64,000 nucleotides of DNA from Candidatus Poribacteria bacterium (lineage in GTDB: Bacteria; Poribacteria; WGA-4E; WGA-3G): contig OZ251518.1 in NCBI GenBank assembly GCA_965242965.1, positions 2,624,001 to 2,688,000 of the forward strand. Reading direction: 5' to 3'. The position numbers and the translations under genes were made by a program. This document shows, piece by piece, positions 20,053-20,424 of this stretch (position 1 is the stretch's first letter; every line of letters starts with the position of its first letter). Under the pieces are notes generated by a model. That model was not told the origin of the DNA and made no database searches. It saw only the letters and a program-made list of their open reading frames with translations.

Positions 20053-20424
20053 TTAATCCGGCTTCCTCGCGCCGTATTTCGAGCGGCCCTGTCGCCGGTT
20101 CTCTACGCCGGCGGTGTCCAGTTTCCCGCGAACAATGTGGTAACGGACATTGGAGAGGTCCTTCACGGCACCCCCACGCACCAACACGACTGAGTGCTCT
20201 TGCAAGTTGTGGTCGATCCCGGGGATATAGCAGGTTGCCTCATAGCCGGAGGTAAACCGCACGCGGGCTACCTTGCGCAATGCTGAATTCGGCTTGTTTG
20301 GCGTAATCGTTTTCACCTGCAAACAGATGCCGCGACGCTGCGGACATTGCTGCAACACCGGGGATTTCGTCTTCTTCCGGGACCGCTTGCGCGGTTTTTT
20401 GATTAACTGGTTAATTGTCGGCAT
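20053..20424 (-). CDS. rpsL: 30S ribosomal protein S12 (atypical residues at decoding loops)
   Basis: [31 protein letters not shown]. Confidence 0.98.

Follow-up and report, generated by a model that had tools for sequence, protein, structure and literature searches.

Streptomycin-resistance substitutions in the 16S rRNA of E. coli, mycobacteria and Thermus lie in the 530 loop and in the 912–915 region. Positions 13, 20 and 915 of the 16S rRNA interact, and single changes at 13, 915 or 526 lead to streptomycin resistance in model bacteria; pair swaps in the 530 pseudoknot and in helix 2 can restore normal function. In ribosomal protein S12 (uS12, the product of rpsL), residues are classically numbered without counting the initiator methionine, and Asp88 is the target of RimO in those species having the enzyme.

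Spontaneous streptomycin-resistance alleles of S12 described for Klebsiella include K42N, K42T, K42R and K87R, with K42N and K42T being costly (PMC4182516). In Thermus, as reported in PMC3884664, replacing P90 by a residue with a small side chain (G, A or C) results in resistance, and replacing it by a bulky one in dependence on the drug. The same source describes G91 as a dependence site of E. coli, R85 changes as a cause of pseudo-dependence, K42 changes as suppressors of P90 dependence, and P90 as adjoining C1490 of helix 44. According to PMC9456066, which numbers S12 with the initiator methionine included (K43, K88, P91), 16S nucleotides 525–526 and 912–913 meet the K43K44P45 and K88 loops of S12 at the streptomycin-binding site. 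K42 bonds the phosphate of C912 (PMC4224418); in the survey presented there, bacterial position 42 is Lys (96%) or Arg (4%) without exception, and R93 is described as universally conserved. On the accounts given in PMC4182516, PMC3884664 and PMC9456066, K42, R85, P90 and G91 are indeed streptomycin hot spots, as the original prediction for the locus described here had assumed.

The rpsL gene of the window

The DNA analysed here is a stretch of 64,000 nucleotides (the window) from a genome of Candidatus Poribacteria. To our knowledge, Poribacteria are known only through metagenome-assembled genomes. The minus strand of the window carries a classical str operon, rpsL-rpsG-fusA, with the genes for S7 and EF-G directly downstream of rpsL:

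17407..19521, minus strand: fusA, elongation factor G, third gene of the str operon (Pfam GTP_EFTU, EFG_III, EFG_IV, EFG_C)
19562..20032, minus strand: rpsG, ribosomal protein uS7, second gene of the str operon (Pfam PF00177, 203.7 bits)
20053..20424, minus strand: rpsL, ribosomal protein uS12, 123 amino acids plus stop, ATG at 20424–20422 (Pfam PF00164)
20149..20154, minus strand: rpsL codons 90–91, TCC AAT, Ser-Asn, Pro-Gly replaced
20158..20163, minus strand: rpsL codons 87–88, AAG GAC, Lys-Asp, unaltered
20167..20169, minus strand: rpsL codon 85, GCC, Ala, Arg replaced
20296..20298, minus strand: rpsL codon 42 (classical numbering), AAC, Asn, Lys replaced

The product of the window rpsL matches PF00164 with 117.3 bits (cut-off 22.3) and a solved S12 chain with an E value of 5e-58. 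Translation of the minus strand over 20053–20427 gives N42, A85, S90 and N91. Around residue 42 the protein reads TPNKPNS; the four best solved S12 chains read TPKKPNS at this place and GGRVKDLPGVRY in the 85–91 region, being canonical for K42, R85, P90 and G91. As the alignment to the solved chains is free of gaps, the classical numbering transfers directly, and translation and alignment together confirm the initial reading of the gene as K42N, R85A, P90S and G91N. The full haplotype is N42-A85-K87-S90-N91-R93. The KPNSA loop and D88 are kept, the conserved PGVR loop is absent, and SNVR stands in its place. As in classical K42N-type alleles, position 42 of the sole rpsL is occupied by a residue other than Lys (Asn), and the sites of dependence and pseudo-dependence, P90, G91 and R85, are all substituted (S90, N91, A85).

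The mechanically derived rpsL reading frame begins at GTG 20505, 27 codons 5' of the ATG (window 20425–20505). Alignments to solved S12 begin at the ATG at 20424, and a purine-rich stretch is located just 5' of that ATG. Elsewhere in the window, two 66-nt direct repeats (22038–22103 and 22169–22234), 97% alike and each with a G+C-rich palindrome, are placed between an amidohydrolase-family gene (20775–22184) and the following gene. The long N-terminal extension of the amidohydrolase-family reading frame crosses one of these repeats, so that its true start probably lies further in.

Authenticity of the variant codons

Such a gene might be explained by errors in sequencing or assembly, by pseudogenization or by a divergent extra copy next to a normal rpsL, an artefact for which nothing was found to speak and to which we give practically no credence. 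The window genome (5.7 Mb in two contigs, 94.66% complete) holds a single PF00164 match; rpsL is thus single-copy, with no second copy or paralogue found, and the gene has an intact frame within the str operon. Contigs from four runs of four studies, two of which may be the source of the window DNA itself, span 19900–20600 and carry all four variant codons in identical form; contig support of this kind speaks for the presence of the codons, not for allele frequencies. Inside rpsL these contigs differ only at 20121, 20131, 20185 and 20224, and all of the differences are synonymous (third- or first-position, by frame). The runs carrying window DNA bear sponge or marine metagenome labels. G001, a genome of the same genus as the window genome, encodes the same four S12 residues by different synonymous codons, with synonymous differences in neighbouring codons. 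Sequencing error is ruled out by the contigs of the four runs together with the codons of G001, and the same residue states are found throughout the phylum.

The number of base changes points the same way. The R85 codon is CGT or CGC in the closest relatives, so GCC requires two changes, and Gly to Asn at codon 91 likewise takes two by the genetic code. The original prediction had regarded sequencing error as unlikely on the grounds that R85A and G91N are multi-base changes, and it had named reads lacking these codons as a reason to abandon it; both points came out in its favour, as the contigs of the four runs agree and independent contigs carry the codons.

S12 residue states across Poribacteria

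We searched 176 Poribacteria genomes, 171 of which had an S12 match. The sequence was read in 165 genomes, the six further S12-bearing ones (G033, G039, G064, G087, G088 and G148) being left out of the counts. Residue states in the 165 genomes are as follows:

S12 position 42: N 77, K 71, R 11, T 4, S 2
S12 position 85: R 140, K 18, N 5, A 2
S12 position 87: K 146, R 19
S12 position 90: S 115, P 38, A 12
S12 position 91: N 163, G 2
S12 position 93: R 158, G 7

Ser or Ala replaces Pro90 in 127 of the 165 genomes, and the canonical set K-R-K-P-G-R is present in one genome only (G044). Asn91 and Ser90 occur in the two most distant sampled classes (families f10 and f11), from which it follows that both are old. 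Asn42 is typical of the window's family, where all genomes of genera g1, g2, g3 and g6 carry it; genus g4 has Ser, and genus g5 is mixed (N 33, K 20, R 10). Genomes from elsewhere in the phylum have Lys42, apart from four with Thr and one with Arg. Ala85 is restricted to the window genome (G000) and G001 among the 165, the third genome of the genus having Arg (CGT). The two S12 loops in contact with 16S rRNA at the streptomycin pocket, with residue 42 on the PNSA side and residues 85, 87, 90 and 91 on the PGVR side, have changed in layers, N91 being the oldest, followed by S or A at position 90, by N, R, T or S at position 42 and lastly by A85, which is confined to a species pair. Thus, the four substitutions that had been presented as a set are all there, but they do not go back to a single event in a single genome: G91N extends over the phylum (163/165), P90S is old (115/165), K42N is polymorphic at the family level (77/165), and R85A alone is private to the species pair (2/165). 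The window rpsL is the sole working rpsL of its genome and represents a derived haplotype of a phylum-wide variant decoding centre.

Variation of this extent might simply reflect relaxed constraint without a drug-related phenotype, with early changes in the RNA, compensated, and at residue 91 affecting local packing and being followed by drift at positions 42, 85, 87 and 90 in slow-growing symbionts, under normal decoding and with a perhaps unremarkable response to streptomycin. We regard this as rather unlikely, if a serious competitor. Several of the substitutions are conservative (R85K 18/165, K87R 19/165), in line with such drift. Drift should hit neighbouring residues too, yet the variable sites stand isolated within invariant sequence, with P41, K43, P44, N45, S46, A47, D88, L89, V92 and Y94 unchanged in 165/165 S12 proteins. 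The states at position 42 (N, T, R, S and, in metagenome proteins among the nearest database proteins, I) moreover include survivors of laboratory streptomycin selection described in PMC4182516, and loss of Lys42 would delete a contact with h27 and with the drug, going by the contacts reported in PMC4224418 and PMC9456066.

Two further S12 features were seen in the phylum. Family f8, a class-level sister (G049–G056; S12 loci L069–L073, L077 and L078), combines K87R with R93G, and R85N is present in five of its genomes. A one-residue insertion after S12 residue 59–60 (SSADEA versus SGYEA) is found in 40/165 genomes, in genera g2 and g6 (e.g., L017–L026).

Comparison outside the phylum

The outside sample comprised 150 proteins, each representing one cluster at 50% identity in a collection of about 15 billion. 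All 149 representatives readable at position 42 have K there, and none has N. PG occupies positions 90–91 in 145/148 of the outside sequences, none of which has N91, against 2/165 genomes within Poribacteria; position 85 is R in 146/148. The high conservation that had been claimed for the four residues is therefore borne out by the K42, PG and R85 counts outside Poribacteria, and the variant residues, which would have lost their meaning if common elsewhere, are rare among the 150 outside representatives.

Among the nearest database proteins and the query, Asn91 is present in 111 of the 120 sequences with a readable motif, and Ala85 is seen once, in the query. The few named nearest proteins with Asn91 are labelled Poribacteria, apart from one labelled 'Zixiibacteriota' and one labelled 'bacterium'. 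When 185,579 species genomes were scanned with a degenerate pattern for S12 genes encoding Asn91, at least 115 stretches matched; of the 80 listed, 76 carry the label Poribacteria and 4 the label 'uncultured bacterium'. This result is consistent with a trait that would be centred on Poribacteria and may also be present in other phyla.

The S12 proteins of Poribacteria contradict the published generalisation on position 42 and the PGVR motif, as it is worded in PMC4224418. In the titles and abstracts of the literature searched, we found no prior description of S12 or rpsL variation in Poribacteria. The class of substitution is well known; a whole phylum fixed for it, with matching 16S changes, was not found described in the literature searched.

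The 16S rRNA side of the pocket

The window genome has one 16S gene (G000:C1:3555006-3556556, L032), which is located outside the window. Positions were placed via the universal-primer sites, the E. coli coordinates of which are well established, and the 16S rRNA was read in 38 genomes of the phylum. The states at the pocket are as follows:

16S position 13: A in the window genome; A in 37/37 genomes
16S pair 18:917: A:U in the window genome; A18 in 37/37, U917 in 36/36
16S pair 20:915: C:G in the window genome; C20 in 35/37, G915 in 35/36
16S pair 505:526: A:U in the window genome; A:U 26, G:U 5, G:A 2, G:C 5 (position 505 is uncertain for three of the G:C cases, which belong to genus g8 and carry a one-base insertion)

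The Rfam consensus for bacterial SSU rRNA has C18, U20, A915, G917, G505 and C526 in capitals, marking them as highly conserved. Taken together with the changes in the S12 loops, these states mean that both faces of the streptomycin pocket are altered in Poribacteria. The 16S changes are mostly both-sided (18:917, 20:915 and 505:526), so that pairing is maintained. In helix 44, the genomes read from families f1–f4 all have ordinary C1409, G1410:C1490 and G1491, and G530 and A1492–A1493 are ordinary in the window's family. The original prediction had looked to h18, h27 and h44 for compensatory changes. Changes were found in h1/h2, h18 and h27; compensation in helix 44 of the window's family was not, positions 1409–1410 and 1490–1491 being normal.

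Both-sided swaps that keep the pairing are also what relaxed constraint would lead one to expect, and since compensated pair swaps can restore function, they may be neutral for drug binding. The association between protein and RNA is loose, which again suits relaxed constraint: genomes of genus g5 with K42 and with N42, close relatives of each other, have identical 16S pocket bases. G043 has S90-N91 alongside canonical U20:A915 and G505:C526, and genus g8 has P90-N91 alongside C526. Strict one-to-one covariation of S12 and 16S states was not found; the association between the two holds for the phylum as a whole.

Some observations concern the 16S rRNA more generally. The two cases of an unpaired G505/A526 in the 530-loop pseudoknot both belong to the Ser42 genus g4 (L060 and L062), exclusively. 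In family f8 (16S loci L082–L086), the pair 1409:1491 is changed from C:G to A:U, a helix 44 change that is absent from the window's family. Compared with the universal primers, Poribacteria 16S rRNA shows three differences in the 8–27 site, one in the 515 site and two in the 907–926 site. As these changes lie under common primer sites, amplicon surveys may be biased and may under-count Poribacteria. Contig 2 of G004 contains six weak SSU-like matches of ~1.8 kb (471–546 bits) at a spacing of ~8.9 kb, a series suggestive of a tandem rDNA array that was binned in from a different organism, possibly the host.

Recurrent changes and a haplotype shared by two families

A nucleotide tree of rpsL was calculated with the six codons masked, families f10 and f11 serving as the root. 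It requires at least 10 changes at position 42, 13 at 85, 7 at 87, 10 at 90 and 2 at 91, numbers that may be inflated because the gene tree is short and weakly resolved. Positions 42, 85, 87 and 90 belong to those sites of S12 that change more often on the same tree. A second tree, of rpsG and fusA from 19 genomes of the window's family (unrooted and built from this family without outgroups), clusters g1, g2 and g6, which have Asn, with g4, which has Ser, and intermingles the K, N and R types in g5. It likewise requires several changes at position 42. The two trees are based on 0.4–1.2 kb of sequence.

Changes at this rate might point to ongoing aminoglycoside-type selection in the sponge holobiont, with position 42 (and 87) toggling on an old S/N background at 90–91 and going back to Lys where producers are lacking. 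The at least 10 changes at position 42 among 165 genomes, with K, N and R within one genus, agree with such selection, as do the correspondence of the position-42 states to classical resistance alleles described in PMC4182516 and the sponge or marine labels of the runs with window DNA. The gene tree is weak, however, and relaxed constraint fits the same pattern, so that we consider ongoing selection distinctly improbable as the main cause.

The haplotype R42-K85-R87-A90 is shared by 10 genomes of g5 and by G066 (L210), a member of another family. The remainder of the G066 S12 is 82–84.5% identical to that of the g5 carriers and 79–84.5% identical to that of its own family. Horizontal transfer as the origin of the G066 haplotype is unsupported, the identity to g5 carriers being no higher than that to its own family. 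The recurrence of R-K-R-A in two families rather suggests a convergent coupling among the four sites, and it points to epistasis instead of the free drift that relaxed constraint would entail.

RimO, rsmG and Asp88

The original prediction had raised a possible effect on the methylthiolation of D88 by RimO, and it had pointed to rimO and rsmG as genes of interest. The best match to RimO (NCBIfam TIGR01125) in the window genome, which is 94.66% complete, reaches 276.9 bits and stays below the cut-off of 356.95. Its two genes of the MiaB/RimO family are MiaB (485 bits, cut-off 355.3) and MtaB (436.9 bits, cut-off 357.05). RimO above cut-off was found in 0/41 genomes of the order. The cut-off was passed by only 6/14 control genomes, so that RimO is not universal anyway. 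With RimO found neither in the window genome nor in the 41 genomes of the order, its involvement is ruled out and the suggested effect on D88 falls away; the residue itself is present in 165/165 S12 proteins. In a clade lacking RimO, Asp88 is probably not methylthiolated. In contrast to RimO, rsmG (gidB), on which the m7G527 modification depends, is present in the window genome (PF02527, 159.6 bits, cut-off 27), which rules out loss of rsmG as a route to resistance.

Discussion

We favour, with some reserve, a lineage-wide, co-evolved remodelling of the decoding-centre interface between S12 and 16S rRNA, accompanied by little response to streptomycin and a shifted accuracy setting. An early change in the RNA and at residues 90–91 would have re-set this interface, and position 42 and its partner sites would then have been free to depart from Lys on the re-set background. 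Loss of the Lys42 side chain is predicted to remove contacts with the h27 phosphate and with the drug, if the contacts given in PMC4224418 and PMC9456066 are taken as a guide. Combined with a small residue at 90, Asn91 and, in the window, Ala85, this loss may mean that streptomycin-type aminoglycosides act on the ribosome poorly or not at all. The balance of accuracy and speed would shift as well, to a degree that may be tolerable for a slow-growing symbiont. Protein and RNA sides would have co-evolved, such that the interface still assembles and decodes. Haplotypes of the N42-A85-S90-N91 type would be the strongest outcome of this remodelling, responding little to drugs of the streptomycin type and decoding at a shifted accuracy. 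By analogy with the model organisms, Poribacteria probably possess intrinsic streptomycin insensitivity together with a different accuracy setting; on the Poribacteria background, alleles may act differently than they do in E. coli, Klebsiella or Thermus.

A bolder reading holds that the whole phylum has a decoding centre of the resistant or dependent type, held in place by matching 16S rRNA, and that aminoglycoside-like compounds of the sponge have repeatedly switched position 42 between K, N, R, T and S. We put this forward tentatively, as possible and yet doubtful. If it were true, Poribacteria would be a natural experiment in the re-setting of ribosomal accuracy and drug sensitivity.

The residues K42, R85, P90 and G91 and the 16S positions 13, 18:917, 20:915 and 505:526 are regarded as fixed parts of the decoding centre, and variation at these positions of S12 and 16S rRNA is known almost solely from drug-selected mutants, usually with a fitness cost. 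Poribacteria therefore offer a source of compensated, viable genotypes, which could be transplanted to laboratory ribosomes to find combinations that restore speed and accuracy. In these abundant sponge symbionts, insensitivity to aminoglycosides is likely to be intrinsic and to reside in the target. Where resistance-gene callers report rpsL K42 or K87 variants from metagenomes, caution is called for, and the design of enrichment media for these uncultured bacteria may profit from the same observation.

Comparison with known systems

The closest described counterparts are the rpsL resistance alleles of Klebsiella pneumoniae (PMC4182516) and K42R of M. smegmatis (PMC2916820), as reported in these two sources. 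The same replacements occur in Poribacteria, N, T or R at position 42 and R at position 87, and they affect the same uS12 loops. The enterobacterial and mycobacterial resistance alleles are single, recent, often costly and drug-selected, and they stand on a canonical background. The Poribacteria states, unlike these laboratory alleles, are inherited across genera on a background of Ser/Ala90, Asn91 and altered 16S rRNA.

The dependence mutants of E. coli and Thermus thermophilus (Timms & Bridges 1993, Gregory 2001 and Carr 2005, cited in PMC3884664) concern the same positions, P90, G91 and R85. If the rule for small residues at position 90 given for Thermus in PMC3884664 applied, Ser90 and Ala90 of Poribacteria would fall on the mild side, i.e., that of resistance. 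S90, N91 and A85 differ from the dependence alleles that PMC3884664 describes in its account of these sites, and the natural 16S context differs as well. Unlike the alleles of dependent mutants, the Poribacteria states have become fixed in free-standing lineages, for which reliance on a drug is no option, and streptomycin dependence of whole natural lineages is implausible.

On the RNA side, 16S resistance mutants and Poribacteria have in common that nucleotides 13, 915 and 526 differ from the bacterial consensus. In Poribacteria, unlike in the mutants, the changes are mostly compensated on the other strand (20:915, 18:917 and 505:526) and are clade-wide. With the canonical uS12, as described in PMC4224418, the S12 of the window shares the fold family, the length, the position in the operon, the PNSA loop, D88 and R93. 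It differs from it in having SNVR in place of PGVR and an uncharged residue at position 42, and one class-level family of the phylum goes as far as R93G.
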